Shown here in pieces: positions 11,374-64,000 of a DNA stretch of 64,000 nucleotides. The stretch covers positions 7,867-71,866 of the forward strand of contig JAJFIW010000003.1 in assembly GCA_021774615.1 (NCBI GenBank), read 5' to 3'. The notes under the pieces were generated by a model that saw only the letters and a list, made by a program, of their open reading frames with translations, was not told the DNA's origin and searched no databases. How positions within the stretch are numbered: the stretch's first letter is position 1; each line of letters starts with the position of its first letter. A program made the position numbers and the translations under genes. Source of the DNA: Alphaproteobacteria bacterium. Its GTDB lineage: Bacteria; Pseudomonadota; Alphaproteobacteria; UBA1280; UBA6503.

Positions 11374-11504
11374 GGTATTACCCTCTTTAAATCTCGGTTG
11401 TGTCGCATTTTTAAGGCAATATCCATCTAAAGTCAAAAGAAAATCGTAAATAATTGTTATTTTTATTGTATATTAGGCACATATAATAAATAGAAAGCTG
11501 CACC

Positions 11505-13598: not shown

Positions 13599-15056
13599 AT
13601 GAGCAACCTAGCCCACAGCCTAACTGATGACAACACTCGTAAAGATTATGACGAGGTATTGATGAAAATTGCGGATTATGTTTGTGATTTTGTGCCTAGT
13701 TCGACGGAAGATTACGACACTGCTCGTAATTGTTTGATGGACACCCTTGGGTGTGGGTTTTTAGCGTTGAAGTTCCCGCAGTGCCAAGCAATGCTGGGGG
13801 CAGTGGTTGAGGGCGCAGACTTACCTATGGATAAGGGCGGCGTGCCAGTGCCGGGGACTTCCCATACACTTGACCCAATTAAAGCTGCGTTCGACATTGG
13901 CTGCATGGTGCGTTGGCTCGACTATAACGACACGTGGCTTGCTGCCGAGTGGGGGCATCCCAGCGACAACCTTGGTGCAATTTTAGCATCTTGCGACTAC
14001 ATGACCAGAACTGGCAAGAAAAACTATACTGTCCACGATGTGCTTACTTACATGATAAAATCCCATGAAATACAGGGTATTTTAGCACTAGAAAACAGCT
14101 TTAATAAAGTAGGGCTAGACCATGTGGTATTGGTTAAGGTGGCGTCTACTGCTGTTGCAACCCACATTATGGGTGGCACAAAACAACAAGTGCTTGATGC
14201 CGTAAGCCACGCATGGCTAGACGGGCAAAGCCTACGGACTTACCGCCATTCGCCAAATACAGGTAGCCGCAAAAGCTGGGCTGCGGGCGACGCTACCAGC
14301 CGTGCAGTACGCCTTGCATTAATTGTACTAAAAGGCGAAATGGGCTACCCAAGCGTGCTAACCGCACCTACTTGGGGCTTTTATGATGTGTTGTTTAAGG
14401 GTAAAGAGTTTAAATTCCAACGGGAGTTTTCTAGCTACGTAATGGAGAATATTCTATTTAAAATTAGCTTTCCTGCCGAGTTCCATAGCCAAACAGCAGT
14501 AGAAGCTGCGGTAAAACTGCATGATGTAGTTAAAAACCGCCTTGATGATATCGAACGGATTGAGCTAATAACCCACGAGGCCGCAATTCGGATTATTAGC
14601 AAGACTGGTGCACTCCATAACTTTGCCGACCGTGACCATTGCTTGCAATATATGGTGGCAGTGCCACTAATAAAAGGTAACCTTACCGAAGATGACTACT
14701 CGGACGAGGCAGCGTCTAACCCACAAATAGATGTTTTACGAGAAAAAATGGTAGTAAGTGAGGACAAACAATACTCGGTTGACTACCATGACCCCGAAAA
14801 ACGCAGCATTGCTAATGCTATCCAAATTTTCTTTACCAATGGCACAAGCAGCGAAAAAGTAGCGATTGAATACCCAATCGGCCACCGCCGCCGCCGAGAC
14901 GAGGGGATACCAGTGCTAGAAGAAAAGTTTAAACGTAACCTACGAGTTGTTTTTGACGATACCCAAGCCAACAACATTTTCGCACTGTGTAAAGACGTGG
15001 ATAGGCTGAATAAAACACTAGTAACAGACTTTAGCGAGATGCTTATTCGCAGATAA
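13599..15056 (+). CDS. prpD: 2-methylcitrate dehydratase
   Basis: 485-aa MmgE/PrpD-family protein in the prpBCD gene order. Confidence 0.85.
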   Translation: MSNLAHSLTDDNTRKDYDEVLMKIADYVCDFVPSSTEDYDTARNCLMDTLGCGFLALKFPQCQAMLGAVVEGADLPMDKGGVPVPGTSHTLDPIKAAFDIGCMVRWLDYNDTWLAAEWGHPSDNLGAILASCDYMTRTGKKNYTVHDVLTYMIKSHEIQGILALENSFNKVGLDHVVLVKVASTAVATHIMGGTKQQVLDAVSHAWLDGQSLRTYRHSPNTGSRKSWAAGDATSRAVRLALIVLKGEMGYPSVLTAPTWGFYDVLFKGKEFKFQREFSSYVMENILFKISFPAEFHSQTAVEAAVKLHDVVKNRLDDIERIELITHEAAIRIISKTGALHNFADRDHCLQYMVAVPLIKGNLTEDDYSDEAASNPQIDVLREKMVVSEDKQYSVDYHDPEKRSIANAIQIFFTNGTSSEKVAIEYPIGHRRRRDEGIPVLEEKFKRNLRVVFDDTQANNIFALCKDVDRLNKTLVTDFSEMLIRR

Positions 15057-24250: not shown

Positions 24251-26515
24251 TTATTTAGGCATATTAGCTATATCCTGTAGGCTTGTATTACTATCCGTTT
24301 GGCCATAATCAGGGTCATTATCCATTATATCTTCAGCATAAGATTTTAAGGAAGATGATATTGAGCGGCCTTTACGAATAGCCAAAAACCCCCCACTAAT
24401 AAGAACACTTACTATTATAACTAGTATAAATGTTTTAGCACCTTGCTCAAAAGTATCGGACGATGCAGTAATGGCAAATGCAGCCAGAGACGCTGGAATA
24501 ATAATTAAGAAGAACCACCACATCTCAGCAAATAATTTTTGTAAATAATCTTGGTTATTAGTGGACGCCTGCTGGCTTTTGTCTTGCATGTTGGTATATC
24601 TTTTCCATGCTTTGTTTTGGCGTTCTTTAATTCCATAAGTTTTGTCATATAACAGTTCATAGGCTCCTTCAAAAGCAGCTTGTATTTCTCTTGTACTGGC
24701 AAATGCCCCAGCTCTGGCACGTTGCTCTATTATATCTGAAATAAGCAGCCCTTGCGGCCGCCCTACACCCCACACTTGGTAGTGCGATTTTAATGATGGA
24801 GCCATAGGGGCAAATGTAGTTTGTGTAAAAGAACGTTTAATACCAACTTCCATTAAGTTTTCGTAATTAAATGGTGTTTGGTAATAATGGCTAAGAGACC
24901 ATTTCTCTTTATCTATTATCTTAGTTTCTTCTTGTTTTAGTTCTGCTAATGCTTTCTCATATTCTTCTAAAACAGGTTTTTCGTCTATAACTAACCAATT
25001 TGGTATTGACTCTGGCATAAAAGATGCCGCTTTAAAATTAAGCTTTGCTACCCATAAAGGCCAATATTCACCTATTTTTAGTTCTTTTTCGCGGAGTATC
25101 CGGTCTAGCGTCTCTGTTGGTCCATATTGTCTGCCATCAAGCGATGTGTTTGTTAGTATATCGCTAAGCTCTGGTATTGGGATATGCTTTATACACTCTT
25201 GTAGTAGATGTTTATTAATAGTCCACATATGTGCGGTATTTTTCTTTTCATCTTCTAAGGTGTTTTTACTAATAGTTTCATGAAAAGAGGCTAAGTTGTT
25301 TTGGATTATCCTTATAGTTTCTTGTACTTCTTTTAGTGGTTCAAATAGAATACGTGTGTCTTCTTTTTCATTAAAAAGAAGAGACAAAATCTTTTGTTCG
25401 AAAAATAAGCAGTATAATAACCCACCACCTAAAGCACATTCGGCAAACTCTTTTATGGCGATTATTTCTTCTTTTTGCCATTTATTATGGTTTGTCATAG
25501 ATAGAAGAATCATAGACTTTACATAGATAATATAATCATCATTATCTAATTCTTGTATCTCTGGTATTTTGTAAAGTGCATGTTCTCTTAATAAGCTAAT
25601 GGTTTTGTCTGGAGCAAAGGCACTGTCTGTTGCAATATAATGGTATTTAAATCGGCGCAGTATATTAGCATTAAATTTTTTGCTATCTGATGCTGCCTTT
25701 TTACCTTCTTGCCTTGCTTCTGGTAAAAATTTATTATTACCATGGGCTGTACGGTGGTACAAAATATTTGCTAGTACAAAAGATAACAACCTATTGTGCG
25801 GGTCTTCATTCCTAATATTTTTTAGAATTGTTAAAGAATCTGCTGCGCGACCTTCTTGATATACTTGGATAGCACGTTGTATTTTTTGTACAGTAATAGT
25901 TGTTGTTTGGTAATCAGAAGGGTTTGCTCGGGCTAGGTCTGTTTCATGGCTTAACATCCTAGATAATAACTGCCCATCAAGACCAATTTCTTCTTTGGTA
26001 GTATTATCAAACCTTGATAGTGCTGTTTTTGGGAAAAATTCTGATTTTAGATTAAGTCCAGCTAGGCATAAGCCTGTAGTGTGCTGTTTTTCGTTGATAG
26101 AACTAGGCAAAGGGGCAATAGCCCGTAGAATAAACTGAGTGAGAGGAGCACTTAAATCTGGAGGAGGAGGCGTTAAGTCATCCTTTTTAAGGCTTTCTAA
26201 CTCTTCATTTTCTTCAATTTCATCATCAGCAGGACTATGACTTTCTAATGTCTTTATGGTGTCTCTATGTAACTGAATTCTAGGGTCTTCAGTTGGTATA
26301 TAAGAAACTCTATCTACTTGGACTGCTGCAAGTAGCATTCTTCCAATAGCAATGCTTTCTTCTGGAAGCTCGGTGGGTATGTTCTCTATACCTGCGATTG
26401 GCTGTGCAGTACGGCGTTTAACGTAAGCAGAATGCTGCTTTTTTAGCATAACCTTTGTTTTATTTAGAGTGCTTTTAAGAGCTACCATTTTGCTACCTTT
26501 TTTGTAGCCTCGCAT
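24251..26515 (-). CDS. large hypothetical protein with C-terminal membrane anchor (two TM helices)
   Basis: 754 aa, AT-rich codon usage, a proline-rich segment (LTPPPPDLSAPL), no recognisable catalytic motif, and two hydrophobic helices near the C-terminus (WWFFLIIIPASLAAFAI...FILVIIVSVLISGGFLAI). Confidence 0.55.
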   Translation of the reverse strand: MRGYKKGSKMVALKSTLNKTKVMLKKQHSAYVKRRTAQPIAGIENIPTELPEESIAIGRMLLAAVQVDRVSYIPTEDPRIQLHRDTIKTLESHSPADDEIEENEELESLKKDDLTPPPPDLSAPLTQFILRAIAPLPSSINEKQHTTGLCLAGLNLKSEFFPKTALSRFDNTTKEEIGLDGQLLSRMLSHETDLARANPSDYQTTTITVQKIQRAIQVYQEGRAADSLTILKNIRNEDPHNRLLSFVLANILYHRTAHGNNKFLPEARQEGKKAASDSKKFNANILRRFKYHYIATDSAFAPDKTISLLREHALYKIPEIQELDNDDYIIYVKSMILLSMTNHNKWQKEEIIAIKEFAECALGGGLLYCLFFEQKILSLLFNEKEDTRILFEPLKEVQETIRIIQNNLASFHETISKNTLEDEKKNTAHMWTINKHLLQECIKHIPIPELSDILTNTSLDGRQYGPTETLDRILREKELKIGEYWPLWVAKLNFKAASFMPESIPNWLVIDEKPVLEEYEKALAELKQEETKIIDKEKWSLSHYYQTPFNYENLMEVGIKRSFTQTTFAPMAPSLKSHYQVWGVGRPQGLLISDIIEQRARAGAFASTREIQAAFEGAYELLYDKTYGIKERQNKAWKRYTNMQDKSQQASTNNQDYLQKLFAEMWWFFLIIIPASLAAFAITASSDTFEQGAKTFILVIIVSVLISGGFLAIRKGRSISSSLKSYAEDIMDNDPDYGQTDSNTSLQDIANMPK

Positions 26516-34419: not shown

Positions 34420-36555
34420 TTAAAATTTGAAAGATGCCTTAACTTGCCCAGTATGGCTTAAAAATTCGTCTTTAATCTGGGCATCATAACCAAATTGCAG
34501 AGTTATCATTTTATTTGCCGACTCAAAAGTAAAAGACGTACCTAGGTTAAGCGATTCTTCAGCTATTTGTACCTGTTGGTCAGACACAAACGCGCCACCA
34601 CCAAAAGCACGAGTGCTTTGTACTTCATCGCTAGCAAAGTCGTACATTAGGTTGGCATGTATTTCGGGGCGGTATGTATTCATATTGTATTTGTATGACC
34701 CCTCTAACCTAGCACCTATTTTACCTACCAAGGAATTTTTACTAGAGATAAGGTCTTGCACAGTGTTTACATTATCGCGCAGGGTAACTTTATCTTTGGT
34801 AATATGGGTGTAGTTTAAACCAGCCTCTGGGATAATATAAGTAGTATTTGCTACGTTAAACTTTTTACCAAACTTAATGTCAGCTCCATATTGATTGGTC
34901 GAGTAATCCCCCGACATCCGCCCAAAACCAAGTACATTTTGTGCTGTATTAACATCGTTAATACCAAAATGAACTGACCCTGTTATAAATGAGTCATCTA
35001 TTGTTTTGTCGCCATATAAAGCTAAAATATAGGTATTAACTTTAGCGTCAGAGTTTGCAAAGCTTTCGCCATTAATATCGGCATAGTTATAGCTAAATGC
35101 TAAGCCTGCACGGGTCCCTGTAGTAACTTCGTTATCGTAACCAATTGTGCCGCCAATGCTGTTGGCCTCGTAGCCTGCAATTCCTTTGCGTGCTCCTTGG
35201 TCAAGGGTGCTTGCAGTGCCTTGGAACCACATTTTATTATTTGCAGTAATATCACCTGCAGAAACACCTAAACTACCACCTCGTAAACTAGCAAGGCGAT
35301 TAGCAATACTTGTAGTAGTCACATGGAAAACTTCTGTCGCAGCATTGTTAATAGCACCTGCAACAACGTTTGCATCCCCTAGTTTGCCTACAGCTTCTTG
35401 AATTTGGGAGGGCGTACCAGCAACAGCAGTGTTTATAGCAGTTTGAACCGTAGCAGGAAGAGTAGCACCACTAGTAAGTTGGATTATTTTACCTGCATCA
35501 GTAGTGCTAACGCCTAAAGTTGTAGCAATTTGAGTTGTTGGTTTAGCAGCTCCTGCTGTAATTTCAACATTGGTACCATTAACAGCAACTGTGAAATTAC
35601 GAAACAAGTTATCAGCGTTAATGTTAGCTACATTTTCATCGGCATTACCAACTAGGTTATCAACTAGCACAACTGTCCCTGAACCAAAAGCAACATCAGG
35701 AATAACTGCAACATTACCTGTCATGTTTAAGGTTGTGCCTGTAAATACAGTTGTTGCATTAATAAATCCATCGCCAAGGTTAAGAGTACCCGTTTGTAAA
35801 GCAACGCTTGATAGGTCAACAGTTCCATTAAATGAAGCCGATGCCGCAGGGTTAGAAATATTAATTGTACCTGAATTATTTAGTATGCTTCCTGCCGTAA
35901 TGCCGTAAGTTCCTGCAGTTAGGTTGCCATTATTATTTATAATAGTGTTTGAAGTGGTAGCTAATGAATTTACAATAGAGGTTGTTCCACCAAGATCAAT
36001 CTGAGCAACAGCTGTAGCTGAATTACCAACCAAAGTAATACCTCCAGTTGTAATATCTCCTGAGACTAATAACGATGCATCTTTATCTGCTATTGTATTA
36101 TTAGATATAATAGTAATAAATCCTTCTCCAAGGTTTAGATCACCAGTAACATCAACAATAATGTCACTATTAGCTGCACCAAACCCACCTATTGCGGCTA
36201 TAGTTAAATTTAAATCCTGTCCAGTAGCTGCATTAATATTACCAATAACTTGTAAGGTTTGTGGCATAGCTACAGCTGATTGTAGTATGCTTAGGGATGA
36301 TGGCCCTGTATTGAAAAGCGTATTAATAGCATCAGGATCAACAGCTGTTTCACCAACAGTTCTATTGTTATCTATAAATATGGTTTCACCAGCGCCTGTA
36401 ATATTTAAATCTTTATTCTCATCACCAGCAATAAGTGGGGAATTAACAGCGAGCATCGCATCATCTACAACATCAGCAAAAGCTATGCTTGGCAAAGTGC
36501 TTATACCAATAAGAGCTGTTGTTGCTAGCAGTAGTGGCATTTGCTTAATTTTCAT
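34420..36555 (-). CDS. autotransporter (type Va) outer-membrane protein with T/N/G-rich passenger
   Basis: Signal peptide MKIKQMPLLLATTALIGISTLPSIAFA, a repetitive T/G/N/A-rich passenger of about 400 aa, and a C-terminal beta-barrel translocator ending ...GQVKASFKF (terminal aromatic residue). Confidence 0.75.
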   Translation of the reverse strand: MKIKQMPLLLATTALIGISTLPSIAFADVVDDAMLAVNSPLIAGDENKDLNITGAGETIFIDNNRTVGETAVDPDAINTLFNTGPSSLSILQSAVAMPQTLQVIGNINAATGQDLNLTIAAIGGFGAANSDIIVDVTGDLNLGEGFITIISNNTIADKDASLLVSGDITTGGITLVGNSATAVAQIDLGGTTSIVNSLATTSNTIINNNGNLTAGTYGITAGSILNNSGTINISNPAASASFNGTVDLSSVALQTGTLNLGDGFINATTVFTGTTLNMTGNVAVIPDVAFGSGTVVLVDNLVGNADENVANINADNLFRNFTVAVNGTNVEITAGAAKPTTQIATTLGVSTTDAGKIIQLTSGATLPATVQTAINTAVAGTPSQIQEAVGKLGDANVVAGAINNAATEVFHVTTTSIANRLASLRGGSLGVSAGDITANNKMWFQGTASTLDQGARKGIAGYEANSIGGTIGYDNEVTTGTRAGLAFSYNYADINGESFANSDAKVNTYILALYGDKTIDDSFITGSVHFGINDVNTAQNVLGFGRMSGDYSTNQYGADIKFGKKFNVANTTYIIPEAGLNYTHITKDKVTLRDNVNTVQDLISSKNSLVGKIGARLEGSYKYNMNTYRPEIHANLMYDFASDEVQSTRAFGGGAFVSDQQVQIAEESLNLGTSFTFESANKMITLQFGYDAQIKDEFLSHTGQVKASFKF

Positions 36556-41636: not shown

Positions 41637-42368
41637 ATGAATTTTAAAATGTTTGTTTTCTTGTTAGGTCTGAGTGCTATGTTTGGTAGCATTTCTGCGT
41701 ATGCTCAAGAAGAACAAGATTTATTGCCACCACCATTGCCAAGTTCTTTGGAGGTTGCAAGTAAACCTGTTGTTGAATACCTCCCAGAACAAGATTTAGA
41801 AAAACTGTTTGAAGATGCACACCGTAATTTTGGACAGGATTTTGGCGAATTAAAAGGGGAGCTCCCTGTTAATAATATTCAAGAAGATATAAAAGTAGAA
41901 GATGCTAAACCTACTGTTATTCCAGAGCCAACAGCCATTGTTAAAAAAGATGAGGTAGATAGCGCTGCTCCTAAACCTGCTATAGTTAAGAAAGCTGAAC
42001 AACCTAAAGCTAGGCAGCTTGATAAAAAGCAGGATGTTAAAATGGTTAGAGGTAGGAATATAAAACAAGATTTTATCTCGCTTGGGGATGTGCGTGTTAA
42101 CGTATCGCTTGAGAATATTACTTTAGAAGAAGTTATATCGTCAGTTGTTAGCAAGGCTGAAAAACAAACAGGGCCATGGAAAGTTCGTTGGAGATTAAAA
42201 GATGAAAACCAAGTATTGAGGCATGAGCGGGTTAACATTAATGCTGAGAGCGACTTTGAAACATTTATGGCAAACCTGATGGCTAAAGTAAATAATACTA
42301 CTGGAACAAAATTATTTATTAAAGTATTTGAAACATCACGAATTATTATAATAGCTGATAATTTTTAG
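41637..42368 (+). CDS. secreted protein, possible TcpQ/BfpG-like secretin partner
   Basis: Signal peptide MNFKMFVFLLGLSAMFGSISAYA, an acidic P/K-rich linker, and a conserved C-terminal domain (~110 aa; ...GPWKVRWRLKDENQVL...). Lies 17 nt upstream of the liposecretin. The family assignment is inference only. Confidence 0.4.
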   Translation: MNFKMFVFLLGLSAMFGSISAYAQEEQDLLPPPLPSSLEVASKPVVEYLPEQDLEKLFEDAHRNFGQDFGELKGELPVNNIQEDIKVEDAKPTVIPEPTAIVKKDEVDSAAPKPAIVKKAEQPKARQLDKKQDVKMVRGRNIKQDFISLGDVRVNVSLENITLEEVISSVVSKAEKQTGPWKVRWRLKDENQVLRHERVNINAESDFETFMANLMAKVNNTTGTKLFIKVFETSRIIIIADNF

Positions 42369-42384
42369 GGAGAAATTTAGTATA

Positions 42385-44148
42385 ATGCGAGGGTTATTTA
42401 CACCAATTAAGAGTATTTTACTTTATACGGTTCTTATTGTATCGGCTGTATACTTGTCTGCTTGTACGGCTATTTACCGTGATACTGTTAAAGCCCCTAC
42501 AAAACAAGAAATTGTAGAATTAAAAACAATGCAACCGCGTAGTGTTCTTAAAAAAGGCACATTCCATATGCAAAGAGTTAGTGACCGCTCGAGCGTTTTG
42601 GTTGACCCTGCTATTAAGCTGAAACGGCCAGAACTACCACCGTTTGATGTAGTATATATTTCGCAACCTGTAGAAGATATCCTTATTGAGCTTGCAAACA
42701 CTGCTGGCGAATCTATTGTGATTCCATCAAGCGTACGAGAGCAAACAATTACTGTTGTTCACTCTGGCTCTAACTTTAAGGGTATGCTCGATATTGTATT
42801 GTCTAAGGTAGGCTATCATTATAACTATGTAGAAGGTGTATGGTATATTACCCGTTTCCCAGTTCGTAATTACCAGCTTGAGATATCGCAGTCAGACAGA
42901 GGTGGTTCTCTTAATACTGCTTTAGAACCTAAACAGATTATAAGCGATGCTGCTACAGTAGAAGCTAGTGGTGGTATTGAAGAATTATCAACTTCTTATA
43001 CTGATGAGTTGTGGGAACAAGTTTCTGATACTTTAGAGCAGCTTGTTTTGGTAGGTACGGGCTCGTCTGCATTAGCAGACTCTGGAAGTGATGAAACATT
43101 TGGCGGAGTTAGCGCTGCTTCTGGATCTGTAGTCGGTTCAAATACAGAGCAAAGCAGGCTTATCCCTGAAGCAGGTTTTTCGGGTGGAAGTGGTGATACA
43201 ACCCGTCCTGAAGATTTGCCAGCAGTACAAGGTAGTGACCATTTATCTTCTGGCGATGATGCACAGCCTTTCTTACAAATAACACCTAGTGCAGGTATTA
43301 TTACAGTTAGGACTTCTCCTGAAGCACACCGGATGATTGAAACATACCTTGAGCAAGTTCAACAATCACTATTACGTCAAATATTTGTTGAAGCAAGGAT
43401 TGTTGCAATTGTGACGGATAAAGAAACTAACCGTGGGAGTAACTTATCTGGTAGTTCTTTAGATTTAGGTATTCCGGGGCTTAAATCTTTAGGTGGTGCG
43501 CTTGGGTTTAGTGGCCAGCCTGCTGTACCAACTGGTGTTAACGAGCAATTGGGTGGGTTCTTAAACCTAACGTTTAATAATAATAATATTCAATCGGTAG
43601 TACAAATGCTTAACCAAGTTGGTGATGTTTATACTATTTCTAGCCCATCTCTTCTTGCTAGAAATAACCAAATATCACGAGTGGCGATTACCCAACAAAT
43701 TGGTTATGCAGAAACAACTGTTGAAACTAACACAAACTCTGACGGTAATGTTGTTATTGGTCAGCGTACAGATGAAGCGCAGTTCCGTAATGCGGGTACA
43801 GTTTTGTCAATTATCCCATTTATTGGTAAAAATAAAGTACAAATGCGGATGCGCCTCTCCATATCTAACCAGTCTGGGGCTGTTTCTATCTTTACTGCTG
43901 TGGGTGTTGGTGACCCTGTAAGAAATGATGTACCAGAGTTAAGCACAAACTTAATCGACCAAGACATGATCATGGACTACGGCCGTGTGCATGCAATTGG
44001 TGGTGTTATCCAATCTAGTACAAACCTAGATAGTTCGTATGTTCCTGGGTTTAACCATGTACCAGGCTTACGCGAGATATTCTCAACTGCAAATAATAAG
44101 AAAACAAATACCGAGTTTATGGTATTAATGCGGGTGTCTAGATCATAA
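42385..44148 (+). CDS. secretin (GspD/PilQ superfamily) with lipoprotein signal (liposecretin)
   Basis: Lipobox LSAC at the signal-peptide end, an N0/STN-like domain, a 120-aa G/S/D-rich disordered linker, and a C-terminal secretin domain ending ...VPGFNHVPGLREIFSTANNKKTNTEFMVLMRV. Confidence 0.75.
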   Translation: MRGLFTPIKSILLYTVLIVSAVYLSACTAIYRDTVKAPTKQEIVELKTMQPRSVLKKGTFHMQRVSDRSSVLVDPAIKLKRPELPPFDVVYISQPVEDILIELANTAGESIVIPSSVREQTITVVHSGSNFKGMLDIVLSKVGYHYNYVEGVWYITRFPVRNYQLEISQSDRGGSLNTALEPKQIISDAATVEASGGIEELSTSYTDELWEQVSDTLEQLVLVGTGSSALADSGSDETFGGVSAASGSVVGSNTEQSRLIPEAGFSGGSGDTTRPEDLPAVQGSDHLSSGDDAQPFLQITPSAGIITVRTSPEAHRMIETYLEQVQQSLLRQIFVEARIVAIVTDKETNRGSNLSGSSLDLGIPGLKSLGGALGFSGQPAVPTGVNEQLGGFLNLTFNNNNIQSVVQMLNQVGDVYTISSPSLLARNNQISRVAITQQIGYAETTVETNTNSDGNVVIGQRTDEAQFRNAGTVLSIIPFIGKNKVQMRMRLSISNQSGAVSIFTAVGVGDPVRNDVPELSTNLIDQDMIMDYGRVHAIGGVIQSSTNLDSSYVPGFNHVPGLREIFSTANNKKTNTEFMVLMRVSRS

Positions 44149-57091: not shown

Positions 57092-57676
57092 CTACTTTTG
57101 CCTTTGGGCATAAGTAAGTAGAATTTTATATGCGTCATTAATGCGCTGGATGCGCTCAACAGCATCTGGCGCATTTTGATGTAAATCTGGGTGATATTTT
57201 TTAGCTAATTGGCGATAAGCAGTTTTAACCTTATTAAGGTCTCGAGGTGTAGAAATACCTAAAGTTTGGCATGCTTTACGGATCTGCCCGGGCACCATAT
57301 CTTGTTTTGGCTCGGGCTTATGAGTATCTTGTTGGCGCATATGTTCACCAAAAACACGGTAGGGGTCTGTTATTTTCTCGTCTATAGTTGCGCTTTTGTA
57401 AGAGTGGCTCCCGACGCCCATTTTCCAAGTTGGTCTATTCCAGTAACCACCTTGTTGCATGGTGAATATCTCATCGCTAGATAGGCCTTCAAGCCCATTC
57501 CAATGTTTATTATATTCTTTTACGTGCTCTAGGCAGAAATAAATACGTTGCCCTAGTTTTTGGGCATCACGTGGCGCTGGAAATTCGCCTTCTTTTCCAC
57601 AATCTGGATAAGCACAAATGCGTTTGAAAGTCATGCAGCTACCTCTTTTTAAAAACAACGAAGTATAAGAGAGCAA
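57092..57676 (-). CDS. J-domain protein with N-terminal Cys/His zinc-ribbon-like segment
   Basis: C-terminal J domain with HPD (AYRQLAKKYHPDLHQ); N-terminal C-x2-C ... C-x2-H (CAYPDCGKEG...FCLEH). Confidence 0.65.
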   Translation of the reverse strand: MLSYTSLFLKRGSCMTFKRICAYPDCGKEGEFPAPRDAQKLGQRIYFCLEHVKEYNKHWNGLEGLSSDEIFTMQQGGYWNRPTWKMGVGSHSYKSATIDEKITDPYRVFGEHMRQQDTHKPEPKQDMVPGQIRKACQTLGISTPRDLNKVKTAYRQLAKKYHPDLHQNAPDAVERIQRINDAYKILLTYAQRQK

Positions 57677-57694: not shown

Positions 57695-58309
57695 TTATCC
57701 TAAAATAAAGAATATCATATCCATGAGTGGTTGTTGTAGAGTAACCATAACCCATAAGCCAATGCTTAGCCCAAAGCCAAAGGGAATAGCCTGCCCACGT
57801 GGTATTACTAGCGATAATACTAGGTTGCTCATAAAAGCAATTGCAAGTGCAAAGGGTAGTGCTGGTAAGCCCACCCATGCGCCTAGTACGGCAAGCATTT
57901 TTACATCGCCAAAGCCTAAGTCACCTTCACCTTTGTGCAAAGCTTTAAGGATAAGGTCTATCACAACTCCAATGCTAGCAGCTACCAATATACCAAGTAT
58001 ACTTTCGATGATTGTAACTTCTAGAATTAAAGGCGCATAAATCAGACCTAAAATTAAGAGAGGGATAGTATAGATATTTAGAAGTAAAAAATGGCATAAA
58101 TCAACAGCAGTCATCCGCCCTAGTAGTACTGCAATTGGTATAAGTAATATAGACTGTAGTGCTGTTAATCCACCATAAATAAACCCTGCCAATAAAAGGC
58201 TACAAAGCCCAACACTTAATAATGCCCAAGCTCGATTTATAAAGCGTACAGGTAGTATGCCGTCGTCAATTTCCTCAGGCAGCACATACCTTTTTTCTAG
58301 TTCCCACAT
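57695..58309 (-). CDS. A24-family prepilin peptidase, short form with no N-terminal Zn/methyltransferase domain
   Basis: Multi-pass membrane protein with the two catalytic Asp motifs (RMTAVDLCHF and GEGDLGFGDVKMLAVLGAWVG). About 200 aa, so comparable to the TadV/CpaA-type. Confidence 0.75.
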   Translation of the reverse strand: MWELEKRYVLPEEIDDGILPVRFINRAWALLSVGLCSLLLAGFIYGGLTALQSILLIPIAVLLGRMTAVDLCHFLLLNIYTIPLLILGLIYAPLILEVTIIESILGILVAASIGVVIDLILKALHKGEGDLGFGDVKMLAVLGAWVGLPALPFALAIAFMSNLVLSLVIPRGQAIPFGFGLSIGLWVMVTLQQPLMDMIFFILG

Positions 58310-58335: not shown

Positions 58336-59376
58336 TTATGGGCAGTTTGTGACATAGCTAATTTTAACTGTAAATGGTGCTTTTAGCACATTATTATAGT
58401 TTGATCTGTAGCATAATCTCCTTAGATCTGGGAATGTATTATATTTTGAGGGTGGTAGGTTTAATAAAGTAAGTAAATCACTATCGTTAACCTCGTCTAG
58501 CTCTGGCGCAACTGCTGCTCTTCCATGAGGGATATAATAATAATTATTTGGTGCAATAACCCCGTCATTAGCATCATGAATAGAATTAGGGAAATAATTT
58601 AGATTTTGCTCCTCCCCAGGCTGGTAAGCACCATCATTATTAAAGTCACAACGAGGGTGTAATAATTCTGGGTTTGCAGTTGTGGCACAGAATATTTTAT
58701 TTTCAATACGAAGAGTTCTCTCGTACTCTTGGAGACGTTTTTGTACGGTTGCAGCTCTTCTATGAGTTTCTAGTGCAGCTTTCTTAACATGTTCAATTGT
58801 AGAGAATTTAACACCAATATCATCACTCATAGGTTTCCAGTTTGTATAATCTGTAATACAGTTAGCTTCAGTATCTTTTCTTAGTATTACACTAGTAGTA
58901 CCGTCATCAGAGCTAATTCCCGAGTCATAGTTTTTATCAGGTCCAGAAGAGTATATAACTACATTATCAACACCAAATAATGTCCCTCCCACATTAATAG
59001 TAGTGTTGCACATACCGAACATCCAGTCATGTCCCCAAGGGTCTTTCTCTAAGGATGAATCCTTTAGATAGTCAACGTCATTTCCTGTAACAACTCTTCC
59101 ATTTACCCAGTCCCTAAGGTTAACTGTAGTCCTAGGTATTAATACGGTATAATTAACGAAATTAGTCCTATCAATGCCTGGGGTAGAAATAAACATTTCT
59201 TCAAGGGCATCAGCTATTTTTTGTACGCCAATATCTGATGACTCAACCCGATTTTTTTCTATTTTACTAACTACTTGTGTTCCGACAACACCAGCCAATA
59301 CACTTACAATTACAAGGGCAACACGAGTGTCCATCGAGAACATCGCACCTCTTTGTGAAGACAGTAATTTAAACAT
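58336..59376 (-). CDS. large prepilin-like protein (class III signal peptide), paralog 1
   Basis: Leader MFKLLSSQRG followed by AMFSMDTRVALVIVSVLAGVVGTQVV (a basic residue + Gly cleavage context, then a 22-aa hydrophobic helix). A Cys-rich C-terminal half shares blocks with the next ORF (DDIG.KFSTI, PRCDFNNDGAYQ.GEE, PNNYYYIP.GRAA). Confidence 0.5.
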   Translation of the reverse strand: MFKLLSSQRGAMFSMDTRVALVIVSVLAGVVGTQVVSKIEKNRVESSDIGVQKIADALEEMFISTPGIDRTNFVNYTVLIPRTTVNLRDWVNGRVVTGNDVDYLKDSSLEKDPWGHDWMFGMCNTTINVGGTLFGVDNVVIYSSGPDKNYDSGISSDDGTTSVILRKDTEANCITDYTNWKPMSDDIGVKFSTIEHVKKAALETHRRAATVQKRLQEYERTLRIENKIFCATTANPELLHPRCDFNNDGAYQPGEEQNLNYFPNSIHDANDGVIAPNNYYYIPHGRAAVAPELDEVNDSDLLTLLNLPPSKYNTFPDLRRLCYRSNYNNVLKAPFTVKISYVTNCP

Positions 59377-59394
59377 TATATTACTATTCCTTGT

Positions 59395-60432
59395 TTATGG
59401 TGTTGGGCAAACTGCCGCATAACTTAATTTAATTGTAAAAGGGGACTGCATATTGCCAGTACGGTTTGACTCGTAGCACAATAATTTACCCCATGGGTCA
59501 GTTGCATAGCTTGCATCTAGACCTAAAGAAATAACAAAAGCTTGCATGCCTGCAAGGTTAAATGCTACATCACCAACCTCGGTACCAGCTGCTGCTCTGC
59601 CATAAGGTATATAGTAATAATTGTTTGGAGGTACCGCTGTATCTACTGTATCAGTAGCCGAACGAGGGAAATAATTTGACCCTATTTCTTCACCTGTTTG
59701 GTAGGCTCCATCATTATTAAAATCGCAGCGTGGGTTTAAAGTCTCAGGGTTTAGTGTAGTAGAACAAAAATCTTGGTTTTCCATAACTTTTGTTGCTTCA
59801 TATGCTTGTAAGGATTCTTGTATAATAATAAGCTTATTCTTCATTTCAGTAATATAAGCTCGCTCAATATCTATAGTGCTAAATTTCATACCAATATCGT
59901 CATTAATTGTGTTCCAAGCTGCAAAATTTGCTACACAAGTAGCATTAGCAAGGATATCACCTGTTCCAGAACTAAGTGTTCGGTCTGGGCCACCAGAATA
60001 TATAACGGCATAATGTACGGTTACTTGAACTCCTTCAATAGTTTGTGTAGCTACACATTTATCAAACGCCCAAGTTTGCCCCCAAGGCTCTTCTACTAAG
60101 GCTGCAGATACTAACCCTGCGTCTATAACTCTGGTTTGGTAGCTACCTAAACCTGTATTAAAGTTAGTTGGTAGAGGGACCAGGGCTGTGTGGCCAGCAG
60201 GTAAACCATTAAGAGCAGTTACAGTAGGTTGAGATTTATAATAGGTCTCAAGCCCATCAACAAGTGCACTTACACTAATTTCGGCTGCTTCTACCCGATT
60301 ACGCTCAACCTTTTGGATAACCTGAGTCCCCACTACGCCAGCTAGCACGCTTGCAATTATTAATGCAATCCGAGCGTCCATCGAGAACATCGCACCTTTT
60401 TGTAGTTTTATTAGGTTTTCAATCATCTTCAT
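59395..60432 (-). CDS. large prepilin-like protein (class III signal peptide), paralog 2
   Basis: Leader MKMIENLIKLQKG then AMFSMDARIALIIASVLAGVVGTQVI. C-terminal conserved Cys-containing blocks are shared with 58336-59376. Confidence 0.5.
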   Translation of the reverse strand: MKMIENLIKLQKGAMFSMDARIALIIASVLAGVVGTQVIQKVERNRVEAAEISVSALVDGLETYYKSQPTVTALNGLPAGHTALVPLPTNFNTGLGSYQTRVIDAGLVSAALVEEPWGQTWAFDKCVATQTIEGVQVTVHYAVIYSGGPDRTLSSGTGDILANATCVANFAAWNTINDDIGMKFSTIDIERAYITEMKNKLIIIQESLQAYEATKVMENQDFCSTTLNPETLNPRCDFNNDGAYQTGEEIGSNYFPRSATDTVDTAVPPNNYYYIPYGRAAAGTEVGDVAFNLAGMQAFVISLGLDASYATDPWGKLLCYESNRTGNMQSPFTIKLSYAAVCPTP

Positions 60433-60447
60433 GCCTTTTTATAAGAG

Positions 60448-61656
60448 TTAATTACCTTTTCTAACGCAACGTGTATTGATACCTAGGCTGCCTTTACCAG
60501 ACTGATAGATAAGCCCGTCACCGAAAGATACTGTGTTTGCAGCACTGTCAGTAGCTTCAGTTGATGTCCAGTATAATTCCCAATCGGTAAATCCACCAAT
60601 AGTGGCTTTGTTTGTATAAAGAGTGCTTAGTTCATTTCTTGATGGTAAGTACCAGTCATCAAAACCATTTAAAACAAGGTTGTGGCATAGTGCTGCTACT
60701 GGGTATTTGGCTGCACCAAGCCCTATATAAGTATCAGTATTTGCTGCACCATCTAGTAGGCTAGTTGCACCAGTTATAACATTCTCAGTAGAAAATACAG
60801 GTGTGCCTGCTTCATCTTGTTCTGCAGATACTAAAGCACCTACACCAGCTGCAAGGCAAATGCCTCCTTGGGCATTGTTGCCTAGGCCTGCACATGAATC
60901 TGGCATTACTATAACGTTATCCATATTCATCGGTACAGTTAAAACTTGTGCCCATGGGGTTGTAGCTTGAAGCTGCGCTATGTTGTCTGAAGTAATAGCA
61001 TAGGTAAATGCTCCTCCCCAGAAATCAGTAGTACTTGATTGTGCTGCAATAGCGGGGTATTCTACAAGTGTTGGGAATCTACCATTCTTTCCCCAGAACG
61101 AATATAATATTTCAGAATATTTTTCCATTCTATCTATAGTTTCTGCAATTTGCTTAGTTCTAATTCCAGATGTATCAATGGTTATAACATCATCACGATT
61201 GTTTATTGTGTCAGCTGCCATTGCAGCTGCATCACCAGCAGTTTCTAGAGCAGTTATTTGTGTGCGAACAAGGTTGTCATCACTTGTTGAAATTATAATT
61301 TGCTGAGAATTGGTACCAACATCTGTTGTAATTGTACCTATAGCAATATTTTGACCAGACCTAGTGCCACCACCAATACTTTTTGCAACAAAGCTATTAA
61401 TAGCGTTGGTATCAACAGCTCCAAATGTACCTGTTGTTTCTGCCATTAGTGCGCCTTCAACGGCTCTTCGGTAAGTATCAGCTGTTTCTTTTGAACGCTG
61501 CTCTTGCTGCTCTTGGATACGCTTCATTTCTAGGTCTGCTTGTATTTTTATACCACCAGAAAGCACTGCCACACCAGCAAGCATACCAAATAGGAACGGA
61601 GAAACCGCCCCTCTTTGACGCACAATAGCGCATTTAATGTAATTTATTAGATCCAA
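60448..61656 (-). CDS. prepilin-like N-terminus fused to a C-terminal DUF1566 (Lcl C-terminal) domain
   Basis: Leader ...IVRQRG then AVSPFLFGMLAGVAVLSGG. C-terminus DWYLPSRNELSTLY...WELYWTSTEATDSAANTVSFGDG...INTRCVRKG matches the DUF1566 consensus (W.LP...EL..L ... YWSST ... VRCVR). Confidence 0.55.
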   Translation of the reverse strand: MDLINYIKCAIVRQRGAVSPFLFGMLAGVAVLSGGIKIQADLEMKRIQEQQEQRSKETADTYRRAVEGALMAETTGTFGAVDTNAINSFVAKSIGGGTRSGQNIAIGTITTDVGTNSQQIIISTSDDNLVRTQITALETAGDAAAMAADTINNRDDVITIDTSGIRTKQIAETIDRMEKYSEILYSFWGKNGRFPTLVEYPAIAAQSSTTDFWGGAFTYAITSDNIAQLQATTPWAQVLTVPMNMDNVIVMPDSCAGLGNNAQGGICLAAGVGALVSAEQDEAGTPVFSTENVITGATSLLDGAANTDTYIGLGAAKYPVAALCHNLVLNGFDDWYLPSRNELSTLYTNKATIGGFTDWELYWTSTEATDSAANTVSFGDGLIYQSGKGSLGINTRCVRKGN

Positions 61657-61682: not shown

Positions 61683-62522
61683 TTATAAAGCCATCTTGAT
61701 TGGTAGCACATATTCCACACCATCAACTGACAACATAACTTTACGATGCTTTATAGCAGTTATTGTCACACTTATATTATGTGCATTAGCATTAGAATCT
61801 GCCTGACGTTTTGCTTTCTCTATCCTGTAGTTATTGATTGCTTCATCTCTCAATAATTCAAATTGTTTGTATGTTTTTTCTGAGATGTTCTCACTCGAGG
61901 GCATTTGTGCATTTATAAGTTCGATTATTTTAGGCTCATTATCGGTAATGTGGATTGGCATTAAGAATCTGTCACCAATAGAGAAACGTTGGTTGTTTAT
62001 AACTACATAAGGTGTTGGTGTAACCATCATTGACGATATAACAATTTTGCTTAAATCTTTCTTAAAATCCCTTTGAACTACCTCTGGAGAGGATTGTAGA
62101 GATTCTGTTGTAACAATTGTTCTTAGATAATTACGAAATTCTTCTAAATCCAATTTTTCTTGAATAAATTCCATTGGTAGATCTGGTACCGTAATATCTA
62201 CAGGTAATTGCGGTAATAAAGGTAAAGTTTCTTGTTTCTCTTCAATATTAAATGGATCTATTAAGTCGCGCCTAATAAGCATAGACATTGTTGGCGTGCC
62301 GATCTCTCTGGCGGTTACCTTACCTCTTGCCGCAGGAGTTATGGTGGTAGTATCAGCTTTATCTAGATCTTTTCTTGTAAACTCGAACTCAGCTTGTCCA
62401 GAAGTAAATGAAGACGGCCAGTCAATAGCATTAACCGTTGGTACAGTTATAATAATAAGTAGTAGTATAAAACTACCATTTACTATAGTTGTTTTATTAA
62501 GCTTTATCTGGGTTAGATACAT
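61683..62522 (-). CDS. bitopic periplasmic protein, possible GspC/PilP-like assembly component
   Basis: N-terminal TM/signal segment (SFILLLIIITVPTVNA) and a small beta-rich C-terminal domain (NISVTITAIKHRKVMLSVDGVEYVLPI). The assignment is inferred from position only. Confidence 0.35.
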   Translation of the reverse strand: MYLTQIKLNKTTIVNGSFILLLIIITVPTVNAIDWPSSFTSGQAEFEFTRKDLDKADTTTITPAARGKVTAREIGTPTMSMLIRRDLIDPFNIEEKQETLPLLPQLPVDITVPDLPMEFIQEKLDLEEFRNYLRTIVTTESLQSSPEVVQRDFKKDLSKIVISSMMVTPTPYVVINNQRFSIGDRFLMPIHITDNEPKIIELINAQMPSSENISEKTYKQFELLRDEAINNYRIEKAKRQADSNANAHNISVTITAIKHRKVMLSVDGVEYVLPIKMAL

Positions 62523-62997
62523 AAATTAGCCCTCTAATTAAGATAGGATATTTTCCTTCTTCTTTTGCTACTCCCGACAAACCACATTTAAAACATATAT
62601 GAGTTATAATAAAGCCTGGTGTATTTTCCATTTTCTGCATAAGTTTTATGGTTTCAAAGTAACTAGCATTTCCTCTTATATTAAATTCATGAATATAGAA
62701 AAATCTATTTGCAGGAGCATCTGGTTTTATGTTGGAAGAAAATCTAAATGATAAACTAGTACCACCAAGCTCCAGTGTTCTTTCTATATTTGCTTTTTGG
62801 TCATCACCAGTACGCATTACTAAATTATCTATTTTCGCCTTTCTTTTTTCAAGGTGCTTCATTTCGTCTATTTGGCTTTGCATATGTTTGAACATTTGCT
62901 GCGATTTGTATAAGGCGTCTTTGTCCTCAAAAAATTGGAATGAGCCAATTATTATTGATAAAATAAGCAATGATAATCCTAAAGGAAATTTTATCAT
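62497..62997 (-). CDS. bitopic protein, GspM/PilO-like (TM + coiled coil + periplasmic domain)
   Basis: N-terminal TM helix LGLSLLILSIIIGSF, a coiled-coil region, and a periplasmic domain of about 90 aa. Overlaps neighbouring genes on both sides (operon). Confidence 0.4.
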   Translation of the reverse strand: MIKFPLGLSLLILSIIIGSFQFFEDKDALYKSQQMFKHMQSQIDEMKHLEKRKAKIDNLVMRTGDDQKANIERTLELGGTSLSFRFSSNIKPDAPANRFFYIHEFNIRGNASYFETIKLMQKMENTPGFIITHICFKCGLSGVAKEEGKYPILIRGLIYVSNPDKA

Positions 62998-63977
62998 TTC
63001 GAACTACCTTTACTTGTTGCTGGCTGCTTTGTAGCACCTTGAATTGAGAGGAAATCCAAATACGACTTAGCTACTTTTTCTAATGGTATAAGCCCCTCAA
63101 TCATAAAATCTGTGGGGTTACCTGTAATTGGTGGTTTTCTAATTTTATTTATAGTTAGGCTTGAAGATAGAAACTTCTTGGCAATAGGCTCTTGCTCTTC
63201 ATATGTTGCATAATGTTTTGTACTTGATTTAATCTTCGTTATAAATGCATCAGGCGGTGTTTTCGGATTTGGGTTCTCAAGAATATAGCTAGTTACAACA
63301 AAATTGGTATCTGCTAAAGCAAGGCTTATATCTTTAAAAATTAGAGAGAACAAAGATTGGTATTTTGAATAGCTCTCAATAGTTTGGATATGGTTTACAA
63401 TTGTTCTAAAATCTGGGTTTTGATTGGTCTGAGTTGATAATTTCTTTATTGCATAAGATGATTTTATAATTTGCTGTTGTTGGTATTCAGACACTGTATA
63501 TGCTAATGCTGCTGCTAAAACTCCAGCTAGTAGCATGTAGTCGCCGTATTTCTCTTGTAGGGTAGGTCTATTTATCCACATGTTTGTATTAATAGGCATG
63601 CTTAATAAAGGGTGGAGCTCAATATCCTGTATATCTTTTGCTGGCGATGTGTCCCAATTTGTATAAATATTTTTTTTTGTTGTTCTTGGGTAAGTTTTTA
63701 AAATTAGCTCTAAATCTTGAGGCCAAGTTTCTGGCGATGTGGGCTGTATATAATTATCTTGGCTATCCCAGTGGAAGATAACATCAGCAACAATAATCGC
63801 ATACATAGTATTAGGCGCAGATCTTCCTGAACGACAAAAGTCAAACATAGAAATAGACTTCATTTCTTGAAGCATTTGCTGAGTAGTAATGTCGTCAAGG
63901 TCATCACCAATAATGGTAGATGCAGGGTCCATAGGTTCACCATGAAGGTCTCGAGGAGAGAAAAACCCGAGCATCAT
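62994..63977 (-). CDS. bitopic protein, GspL/PilN-like (cytoplasmic domain, central TM, periplasmic domain); start may lie at or beyond the window edge
   Basis: A cytoplasmic segment of about 140 aa, a TM helix YGDYMLLAGVLAAALAYTV, and a periplasmic domain of about 170 aa. The gene order resembles gspL-M-(C)-pseudopilins-O. Confidence 0.4.
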   Translation of the reverse strand: MMLGFFSPRDLHGEPMDPASTIIGDDLDDITTQQMLQEMKSISMFDFCRSGRSAPNTMYAIIVADVIFHWDSQDNYIQPTSPETWPQDLELILKTYPRTTKKNIYTNWDTSPAKDIQDIELHPLLSMPINTNMWINRPTLQEKYGDYMLLAGVLAAALAYTVSEYQQQQIIKSSYAIKKLSTQTNQNPDFRTIVNHIQTIESYSKYQSLFSLIFKDISLALADTNFVVTSYILENPNPKTPPDAFITKIKSSTKHYATYEEQEPIAKKFLSSSLTINKIRKPPITGNPTDFMIEGLIPLEKVAKSYLDFLSIQGATKQPATSKGSSK

Positions 63978-64000
63978 ATTACGCCGTGACTGCTCATCTG

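Follow-up and report, generated by a model that had tools for sequence, protein, structure and literature searches.

Genes at the Locus

The protein described here is a 402-aa product with a prepilin-like N-terminus and a C-terminal DUF1566 domain of the Lcl type (Lcl_C). Its gene lies on the minus strand within the window, i.e., the whole 64-kb stretch of DNA that was analyzed, and is surrounded by genes that point to a filament-assembly operon. The relevant genes are listed below.

60448–61656, minus strand: whole gene for the modular pilin-like protein of 402 aa, with a TTG start in the list of open reading frames
59395–60432, minus strand: large pilin-like protein of 345 aa, with a leader ending in LQKG, followed by AMFSMDARIAL
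58336–59376, minus strand: 346-aa paralogue of the 345-aa gene (46% identity), with a leader ending in SQRG, followed by AMFSMDTRVAL
57695–58309, minus strand: prepilin peptidase of family A24, 204 aa (PF01478, E 2.7e-11, 44.3 bits)
61683–62522, minus strand: conserved operon member of 279 aa with an N-terminal signal-like segment
62497–62997, minus strand: bitopic protein of 166 aa, a conserved operon member by synteny
62994–64000, minus strand: 3′ part of the gene for a conserved operon protein of 370–393 aa, with the frame open to the end of the window
42385–44148, plus strand: secretin of 587 aa, candidate outer-membrane channel of the filament (PF00263, 81 bits)

The 402-aa ORF is real, as claimed in the initial annotation, and holds the stretches RQRG, AVSPFLFGMLAGVAVLSGG, DWYLPSRNELSTLY, YWTSTEA and NTRCVRKG that were quoted from it. 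The NCBI product of the same gene (P0001), to which it is 100% identical, is shorter (391 aa), with a GTG start at 61623. The TTG start is favored over this GTG start, because homologues have leaders of 14–16 aa with a pattern similar to that of the TTG-start leader.

The two genes directly downstream encode GspG-like proteins. The 346-aa protein matches TIGR01710 (GspG) with E 4.3e-5, and the matches of the 345-aa protein are weak (TIGR01710, E 1e-3; PF08334, E 0.06). Between the latter and the 196-aa class, the N-termini are homologous (hhalign, 97.5%). In relatives the large pilin gene is present in a single copy, compared to the 345/346-aa pair found here. The third downstream gene encodes the A24 peptidase, whose candidate catalytic aspartates are D70 (in TAVDL) and D135 (in GFGDVK). 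At 204 aa, this peptidase is too short to contain an N-terminal methyltransferase domain.

Upstream lie three conserved assembly genes, none of which matches a known family. Syntenic orthologues of 267–293 aa exist for the 279-aa protein in the related loci L002–L005 and L010, and its family matches are sub-threshold only (T2SSB, CdsD_C). An orthologue of the 166-aa protein gives a weak GspM match (E 0.03), and the protein is possibly a GspM/PilO-like assembly protein. In relatives, the T2SSF gene is immediately followed by a full-length orthologue of the 370–393-aa protein. The gene order recurring in the same five loci is a PilB/GspE-type ATPase, a GspF/PilC-type platform protein, the three conserved genes, the protein family studied here (hereafter the carrier), the large pilin and the A24 peptidase. 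The carrier of L010 is only 29% identical, yet the three protein classes and the gene order are kept. Each operon has one conserved copy of the carrier, and its position beside the assembly genes is conserved as well. The ATPase of the relatives belongs to the PilB/GspE family and has an MshEN domain. ATPase and platform genes are known only from these syntenic operons, as the copies of the source genome fall outside the window. Look-ups by exact sequence, with both start variants of the 402-aa protein and with the 279-aa and 166-aa proteins, yielded either nothing or contigs of no more than 1–2.3 kb, which did not extend the sequence past 64000. Only part of the filament-assembly operon initially proposed lies inside the window, as the gene at 62994–63977 runs off its end.

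A secretin gene is located 16 kb from the operon. MshL is the best NCBIfam match of its product (117 bits), although the score is below the cutoff. The gene rules out the argument that the system lacks a secretin and hence cannot form a surface filament. Its link to the operon is inferred.

The Carrier Module and Its Heads

Within the 402-aa protein the following parts can be distinguished.

61609–61656, minus strand: basic leader MDLINYIKCAIVRQRG, residues 1–16, with a prepilin-peptidase cleavage site predicted after G16
61549–61608, minus strand: hydrophobic segment AVSPFLFGMLAGVAVLSGGI, residues 17–36, putative α1-N, without acidic residue
60916–61608, minus strand: conserved carrier (base) module, residues 17–247
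60772–60915, minus strand: acidic low-confidence linker, residues 248–295, with the Cys pair C255 and C267
60451–60771, minus strand: C-type-lectin-like Lcl_C/DUF1566 head, residues 296–402 (Pfam part: residues 322–399, nt 60460–60693)

The N-terminus has the layout of a class III signal, i.e., a short basic leader ending in Gly and then about 20 hydrophobic residues; AVSPFLFGMLAGVAVLSGGI, which follows the leader immediately, has a mean hydropathy of 1.83. A six-frame scan of the window (143 long frames) for [KRQ][KR]G with 20 hydrophobic residues behind it returned only three sites. These lie at 61617, 60402 and 59355 in adjacent genes, directly upstream of the Peptidase_A24 gene, and such clustering is far from chance. 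The leader ending Q[RK]G is shared with the two downstream pilin-like genes, and in the related loci it occurs in each of the three protein classes. Among 44 representatives of the carrier family the Gly at position 16 is near-invariant, while the leader in front of it is 6–37 aa long. Conservation in the family peaks in the region G16–S33, with a mean column value of 0.73, compared to 0.35–0.48 elsewhere. In close relatives S19, P20, F21, L22, F23 and G24, among others, are invariant, and the family-wide form of this SPFLFG motif is SPF[LM]FG. To our knowledge, neither this motif nor a Pro at +4 has a precedent in characterized pilins.

The signal is nevertheless non-canonical. No acidic residue is present at positions +1 to +20 of the predicted mature protein, including +5 and +6, and the N-terminal segment lacks one in 44 out of 44 family members. 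In contrast, both other pilin classes of the operon retain an Asp at +6. Neither the 402-aa protein nor any of the 44 representatives has an HMM match at E ≤ 1 to N_methyl (PF07963/IPR012902) or TIGR02532, and none of them matches the pilin HMMs T2SSG and T2SSK. The prepilin signal that had been read from the sequence therefore stands as far as the shared leader motif, the two GspG-like neighbors and the A24 peptidase are concerned, but it has no Glu5 and no N_methyl match. A lipoprotein signal was rejected, as the sequence lacks a lipobox and has no N-terminal Cys outside the leader.

In the structure models the carrier consists of an N-terminal helix of 53 residues, an inserted α/β region, a helix at residues 162–191 and a three-stranded sheet at residues 218–244, with an FWGxxFxY motif in the sheet region. 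The long N-terminal α-helix and the antiparallel β-sheet correspond to a pilin fold, with pLDDT values below 50 for the N-terminal region in both models. The "pilin-like stalk" of the initial annotation is thus found back as a pilin fold, but one embedded in a conserved carrier module of about 230 aa, which is no simple pilin. The protein neither matches the T2SSK family nor structurally resembles GspK with its inserted α-domain.

The carrier family is rare. A profile-based homologue search brought in no new member but P0080, and an exhaustive HMMER search was required to reveal the full family, comprising 50 clusters among 1.84 billion representatives. Most members are a base alone of about 245 aa. 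Others carry heads, being Lcl_C, endostatin/DUF1554, DUF285, or a propeller of the FG-GAP or RCC1 type. Besides the 402-aa protein, P0042 and P0072 also combine the carrier with Lcl_C; compared to the base of the 402-aa protein, the identity is only 32% for P0042 and 22% for P0072. A near-canonical pilin gene adjoins P0072; no type IV filament (T4F) genes are present beside the distant RCC1-bearing member P0075 on its 9-kb contig. As the family swaps such different heads, or has none, Lcl_C appears to be one of several interchangeable binding modules. When compared with the family of the neighboring large pilins, the carrier gives a weak profile-profile match (probability 18%, covering the N-terminal 63 columns only). 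Homology is therefore not claimed, and the two families are taken to have a common signal architecture.

Carrier and head are connected by a linker with pLDDT values below 50 (residues 249–295), in which a C...GG.C hairpin is kept in the Lcl_C-bearing relatives P0042 and P0072. The head itself is a genuine DUF1566 domain, as initially assigned. Its PF07603 match lies above the gathering threshold (36.3 bits versus 34.9, E 7.9e-9) and covers residues 322–399, corresponding to profile positions 29–117 out of 117. The predicted fold is C-type-lectin-like, as in the crystal structure of the C-terminal domain of Lcl. Two predicted disulfide-capable Cys pairs are present in the head. A phmmer search against PDB sequences returned nothing beyond a weak match to Lcl and a spurious one to a beta-lactam synthetase. 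DUF1566 domains are known targets of diversity-generating retroelements. However, this explanation was rejected for the present head, because the 3′ 460 nt of the gene, the query with which a template repeat was sought, occur only once in the window.

Proposed Position in the Filament and Alternatives

The reading that we favor, at a probability of roughly 60%, is that the 402-aa protein is a modular minor pilin without acidic residue, which caps the tip of a divergent, compact T4F system and displays a lectin head there. The N-terminal hydrophobic segment would insert the protein into the inner membrane, after which the A24 aspartic peptidase of the operon would cut off the 16-residue basic leader behind Gly16. 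The resulting N-terminus probably lacks N-methylation, since the peptidase is too short for a methyltransferase domain. The mature protein would then behave like the Glu5-less capping and priming subunit of known T4F and end up at the filament tip. This position is proposed because the carrier has no counterpart of the acidic residue, Asp at +6, of both other pilin classes. Tip complexes are indeed capped by a Glu5-less subunit in known systems, whose filaments assemble tip first (PMC10191384). Modular pilins are widespread and have been proposed to be tip-exposed; they include fusions of IPR012902 and IPR011460 (PMC8179133). The carrier module, with its pilin fold, would dock onto the filament, and the flexible linker of about 50 residues would hold the Lcl_C head outward to bind a ligand, probably a glycan. 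The filament may reach the cell surface through the MshL-like secretin.

A first alternative, which we regard as rather unlikely, is a minor pilin along the filament body, or one that is only occasionally incorporated, whose head projects sideways on the linker. All pilin evidence applies equally to such a protein. Moreover, the long low-confidence linker would permit lateral display, and Raynaud et al. note that modular pilins with a flexible linker might also be located in the filament body (PMC8179133). What argues for a cap instead is the absence of an acidic residue from all 44 N-termini of the family next to the Asp at +6 in both other classes, which is the signature of a capping subunit. 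The single conserved copy per operon, at its conserved place beside the assembly genes, points in the same direction.

Slightly less probable still is a bitopic inner-membrane assembly component of the PilN/PilO/GspM/GspC type, with an uncleaved signal anchor, a coiled-coil helix and a lectin-like domain in the periplasm that binds, for example, cell-wall glycan or cargo. Its attraction is that a short basic N-terminus, a transmembrane segment, a long helix up to residue 72 and α/β domains make up a PilN/PilO-type topology too. Furthermore, the gene sits among assembly genes that belong to no known family, and the protein has no pilin HMM match.

Very improbable is a Sec-exported soluble or surface cargo, comparable to Lcl, which is a T2SS substrate in Legionella (PMC11162425), with a signal peptide cleaved near SGG/I (the slash marks the cut): the small-x-small site S33-G34-G35 does follow the hydrophobic stretch in the 402-aa protein and its close relatives, but it is not conserved in more distant members (e.g., FSNLAM, FSTISL), the signal motif is common to the pilin-like neighbors, and most family members are a base alone without any cargo-like domain. 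In addition, a conventional Sec signal, against which the initial annotation had set its prepilin reading, is unlikely because G16–S33 is conserved to a degree unlike that of Sec signal peptides, the Gly is near-invariant despite a variable leader and the hydrophobic stretch continues into the single 53-residue helix of the predicted model. Of the two roles put forward at first, a tip adhesin or a secreted substrate, the tip adhesin hence fits better.

A more far-reaching proposal concerns the operon as a whole, and we offer it tentatively, as somewhat doubtful. The operon could represent an undescribed T4F subtype of small-genome marine proteobacteria, characterized by G/AMF[SG][LM]DAR pilins with Asp at +6, a short peptidase, three assembly proteins without known family and a dedicated acid-less capping carrier (G/xxSPF[LM]FG) that serves as a plug-in platform for heads. 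The Lcl_C head would then have been acquired by module exchange within the family.

The combination of a pilin and DUF1566 is already known; the new part is the rare, non-canonical carrier. If the favored reading of a tip-capping modular pilin is true, the modular-pilin principle extends to a carrier that is invisible to the current pilin signature IPR012902, and surveys of modular pilins would therefore undercount. The family would offer a compact natural case of one carrier exchanging very different heads, useful for understanding how tips gain specificities, with display engineering as a possible application. DUF1566/Lcl_C, a domain that is still poorly understood, would have a filament tip as its second defined delivery context besides a collagen stalk, which could help to define its general role. 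For the uncultured marine hosts it would imply attachment to surfaces or particles via a lectin-tipped filament. As the modular-pilin concept is already established, the advance remains incremental if the machinery does not turn out to be a filament subtype of its own.

Comparison with Known Systems

The machinery resembles those of MSH pili, the T2SS and type IVa pili (T4aP). The relatives have a PilB/GspE ATPase and a GspF/PilC platform, and the window contains an A24 peptidase, GspG-like pilins and an MshL-like secretin. However, all components score far below equivalog cutoffs. The pilins start with G/AMF[SG][LM]DAR and carry Asp at +6, in place of G/FTLIE. The operon further differs by its 204-aa peptidase, by having only three pilin classes and by its three assembly genes without known family.

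With Lcl of Legionella pneumophila, the 402-aa protein has the C-type-lectin-like fold of the C-terminal DUF1566/Lcl_C domain in common. In contrast to Lcl, it has neither collagen repeats nor an amphipathic N-terminal anchor helix, and the export route differs. The Lcl equivalog NF046116 is matched by the C-terminal 58 residues only, at 20.4 bits versus a cutoff of 500. In Lcl, the C-terminal domain is free of disulfides and uses a basic surface to bind glycosaminoglycans (PMC11162425), whereas the present head has two predicted Cys pairs and is acidic overall (K+R 7, D+E 10, pI 4.8). This acidity argues against an Lcl-like charge mechanism, so that the glycosaminoglycan-binding mode of Lcl may not be simply transferable.

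GspK- and PilK-type minor (pseudo)pilins, which cap the tip, likewise combine a class-III-type leader ending in (Q)RG with the absence of an acidic residue at +5. Like the 402-aa protein, they exceed the ordinary pilin size by an extra domain, and the proposed role is to cap and prime the filament (PMC8179133; PMC10191384).

CofB and TcpB of type IVb pili are another parallel. In these systems, which have few minor pilins, one large minor pilin bears extra domains at its C-terminus, attached by a flexible linker, and takes the tip position, much as proposed for the 402-aa protein. No sequence similarity to these proteins was detected, and with a PilB/GspE-like ATPase and an MshL-like secretin the present machinery is not of type IVb. 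CofB forms a trimer at the tip (PMC10191384; PMC8179133), and the C-terminal domain of Lcl is a trimer as well (PMC11162425). By analogy, a trimeric cap is conceivable for the 402-aa protein.

The closest concept is that of the modular type IV pilins, such as PilB (vWA module) and PilC (lectin module) of Streptococcus sanguinis. These also consist of a pilin-type carrier, a linker and a binding module that is not restricted to pilus biology, and their lectin-type head is proposed to be located at the tip, as here. The pilin and DUF1566 architecture (IPR012902-IPR011460, the latter being DUF1566) is already listed for 7 + 2 = 9 proteins in Dataset S1 of Raynaud et al. (2021; PMC8179133). In the literature searched, no experimental characterization of these catalogued DUF1566 pilins was found. 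With a pilin-fold base in the models, a linker and an Lcl_C head, the 402-aa protein falls within the definition of a modular pilin given by these authors, although it lacks the IPR012902 match that they used operationally. Indeed, the catalogued proteins carry IPR012902/N_methyl, whereas the present carrier has neither this match nor Glu5. The machinery is that of a divergent diderm system, whose peptidase is too short for a methyltransferase domain, and the carrier, with its inserted domain and its own invariant SPF[LM]FG, represents a rare family next to the modular pilins described so far.

The target protein and its C-terminal head

The minus-strand ORF at 60448-61656 encodes a protein of 402 aa with a TTG start and contains every string quoted in the initial annotation. 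The C-terminal DUF1566 domain proposed there was borne out by a Pfam search, in which Lcl_C (PF07603, formerly DUF1566) matched residues 322-399 (E 7.9e-9) with 36.3 bits, barely exceeding the gathering cutoff of 34.9 bits. The NCBIfam equivalog for full-length Lcl, the Legionella collagen-like adhesin, reached 20 bits, with its cutoff at 500. The target has the Lcl domain in common with this adhesin, but is not an Lcl orthologue.

In the NCBI annotation the same product (P0001) has 391 aa and a GTG start, 11 codons downstream of the TTG (window 61621-61656, minus strand), which would leave MRQRG alone as leader. The 402-aa form with the TTG start appears preferable, because the closest homologues have leaders of 14-16 residues with a like pattern (MKLKQYLYRLYKRQRG versus MDLINYIKCAIVRQRG) and a G-rich Shine–Dalgarno-like run lies 5′ of the TTG. 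The RQRG ending of the leader results from both starts alike.

The AlphaFold model of the full-length protein, which had been proposed as a check, has a mean pLDDT of 69 and consists of a base module, whose residues 170-240 reach pLDDT 84-93, an acidic linker (residues 249-295) that is disordered, and a globular C-terminal head (pLDDT 75-88). Judged by their lengths, helix 162-191 and strands 218-244 probably form the pilin-like unit; their FWGxxFxY motif recalls the DPWG motif of GspG.

A compact filament operon and its relatives

The target gene is part of a minus-strand operon whose genes overlap or lie apart by no more than 26 nt:

Gene 1, from 62994, running past the window end, minus strand
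Gene 2, minus strand, 166 aa
Gene 3, minus strand, 279 aa
Gene 4, 60448-61656, minus strand, the target
Gene 5, 59395-60432, minus strand, 345-aa pilin-like protein, weak GspG match
Gene 6, 58336-59376, minus strand, 346-aa paralogue, weak GspG match
Gene 7, 57695-58309, minus strand, Peptidase_A24 (prepilin peptidase), 204 aa, E 2.7e-11
Gene 8, 57092-57676, minus strand, DnaJ-domain protein with a Cys-rich N-terminus

The 345- and 346-aa proteins have their design in common with the target: the leaders end in QKG/QRG, after which come AMFSMD(A/T)R(I/V)AL and a run of hydrophobic residues. They are 46% identical and represent a tandem duplication of the large pilin-like gene, of which related loci have a single copy. 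The canonical pilin signal is G|FTLIE, with Glu5. The pilin-like proteins of this system have the conserved signal Q[RK]G|AMF[SG][LM]DAR, with Asp +6 and Arg +8, at the following sites:

Window, 59355-59376 and 60402-60432, minus strand
Related locus L002, 3961-4551
Related locus L004, 3900-4511
Related locus L010, 1984-2526

The candidate catalytic Asp residues of the peptidase are found in TAVDL and GFGDVK. Because the length of this enzyme accommodates the A24 domain but not the N-terminal methyltransferase domain, which belongs to PilD-type enzymes, the pilins of the operon are probably not N-methylated.

One gene order is common to the related loci L002, L003, L004 and L005, which come from marine metagenomes and 'Proteobacteria bacterium UBA6503' and encode homologues (carriers) about 50% identical to the target. 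L010 keeps this order with a carrier of only 29% identity. The order runs from a ~200-aa pilin-like protein, an ATPase, a platform protein and a 370-393-aa protein, via a ~166-aa protein, a 267-293-aa protein and the carrier, to the large pilin, the A24 peptidase, DnaJ and GntR. The ~200-aa protein has a leader ending in SQRG, followed by AMFGLDAR. Its N-terminus is clearly homologous to that of the ~340-aa class (hhalign 97.5%), whereas the carrier N-terminus is weakly similar to both classes (18% in the profile comparison). The platform protein is GspF/PilC-like, and the ATPase is of the PilB/GspE type (TIGR02538 262 bits, TIGR02533 244 bits, both far under cutoff) and additionally contains an MshEN domain. 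Because of this domain, a 676-aa EAL-domain protein in the window (4052-6082, plus strand), linked to c-di-GMP turnover, may be relevant to the filament system.

All related loci, the distant L010 among them, have a DnaJ-domain gene behind that for the peptidase (L002 12561-13115; L010 12279-12812), which could reflect a conserved neighbourhood or a functional link. In L010, a 325-aa T2SSE-family ATPase adjoins the operon (13802-14779, minus strand); its size suggests a retraction-type enzyme, and the examined part of the window showed no counterpart to it. L003 has a 183-aa gene (11312-11863, plus strand) and a small antisense ORF between the carrier and large pilin genes.

About 16 kb from the operon, the window encodes a secretin of 587 aa (42385-44148, plus strand; PF00263 81 bits; best NCBIfam match MshL, under cutoff), preceded by a 243-aa ORF without family match (41637-42368, plus strand). 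This secretin may be the outer-membrane channel of the filament, and with it the objection that such a structure could not be exposed by a diderm no longer holds. Another surface protein in the window is an autotransporter (34420-36555, minus strand; beta-domain 130 bits). A 754-aa ORF (24251-26515, minus strand) had no Pfam match at E <= 1e-5 and no NCBIfam match at E <= 0.01. The sole Rfam match in the window is a class A bacterial RNase P RNA (608-957, minus strand; 314 bits).

Interchangeable heads in a small carrier family

A first homology search with the target yielded 14 proteins of ~245 aa that aligned with no more than the first 61% of the query at 46-58% identity, and two proteins of 414-420 aa with a C-terminal extension unlike that of the target. 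When 1.84 billion cluster representatives were searched exhaustively with HMMER, the carrier family grew to only 50 members. Most consist of the base alone (~245 aa), while the longer ones bear various heads:

Lcl_C: P0001 (the target), P0042, P0072
Endostatin/DUF1554: P0033, P0005, P0006
FG-GAP repeats: P0069, P0070
RCC1 propeller: P0074, P0075, P0076, P0078
DUF285: P0080

The bases of P0042 and P0072 share only 32% and 22% identity with that of the target. Over the whole ~150 residues of the extensions, identity amounts to 41% and 37%, and a Cys-x(n)-Cys hairpin is conserved. The fusion of carrier and Lcl_C is thus not a one-off; either it is old and often lost, or heads move among family members. 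At the locus of P0072 (L009), a gene for a near-canonical pilin lies two genes downstream, and a distant RCC1 member (L008) does not adjoin type IV filament (T4F) genes on its short contig. P0061 (663 aa) is highly repetitive, with carrier profile positions 185-241 matched by 12 tandem copies; this match looks like a spurious hit or an assembly artefact. DUF1566 is known in literature as a DGR target; a template repeat for the head of the target was looked for in the window and none was found.

Proposed function and comparison with known systems

The initial annotation had assigned a prepilin signal to the target. A Pfam/NCBIfam search with pilin HMMs (N_methyl, TIGR02532, T2SSG, T2SSK) gave no match, but several independent observations point to a class III architecture of the N-terminus. 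Among 143 long frames from all six reading frames of the window, [KRQ][KR]G followed by 20 hydrophobic residues occurred at exactly three sites, i.e., in the target and the two adjoining genes. Among 44 representatives of the carrier family, the signal Gly is near-invariant, and the leader ahead of it is between 6 and 37 residues long. The segment that follows the Gly, with the consensus G|xx[SAT]P[FY][ML]xG[LM], is the best-conserved part of the carrier (mean column conservation 0.73 versus 0.35-0.48 elsewhere). Such a pattern is the opposite of that of Sec signal peptides, and the small-x-small site SGG|I after the hydrophobic stretch of the target is not conserved in distant members. In the model, the hydrophobic stretch continues into the soluble part as a single 53-residue helix (residues 20-72; 14-35 at low confidence), matching the length of pilin alpha-1.

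The target would thus be a prepilin-like subunit, processed by the peptidase of the operon after Gly16 and incorporated into the filament. It is best explained as a capping subunit from which assembly would start, presumably located at the tip, because both other pilin classes keep Asp +6, whereas the N-terminal segment of the carrier family never contains an acidic residue. This missing residue also makes a minor pilin in the filament body less likely, although the flexible linker would allow such a location. The example of Lcl would suggest a Sec-dependent secreted substrate, but the N-terminal conservation pattern contradicts this reading. As a capping subunit, the target would display its head on the ~50-residue flexible linker at the tip as a binding module, probably for a glycan, and the secretin would provide the route to the surface. 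The initial interpretation as a whole is supported with these refinements.

The DUF1566-containing domain of Lcl forms a C-type-lectin-like trimer whose basic surface binds sulphated glycosaminoglycans (PMC11162425). In contrast, the head of the target is acidic (pI 4.8) and contains Cys pairs that the C-terminal domain of Lcl does not have; neither ligand nor mechanism is assumed to be the same. Modular pilins are an established concept, represented by over 1,200 proteins in 264 architectures (Raynaud et al., PMC8179133), and the combination of pilin and DUF1566 is already catalogued, as Dataset S1 of that survey lists IPR012902-IPR011460 (n=7) and IPR012902-IPR011460-IPR011460 (n=2), IPR011460 being DUF1566. 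A literature search found no paper characterising a pilin-DUF1566 protein. Compared to the surveyed modular pilins, the carrier of the target is different in that it lacks the N_methyl signature, has an invariant motif of its own, comprises ~230 aa and comes from a family of very few members. A second difference is the swapping of heads within this family. Furthermore, the surrounding T4F is divergent and compact; its pilin signal (Asp +6) is unusual, and its short peptidase leaves no room for a methyltransferase domain.
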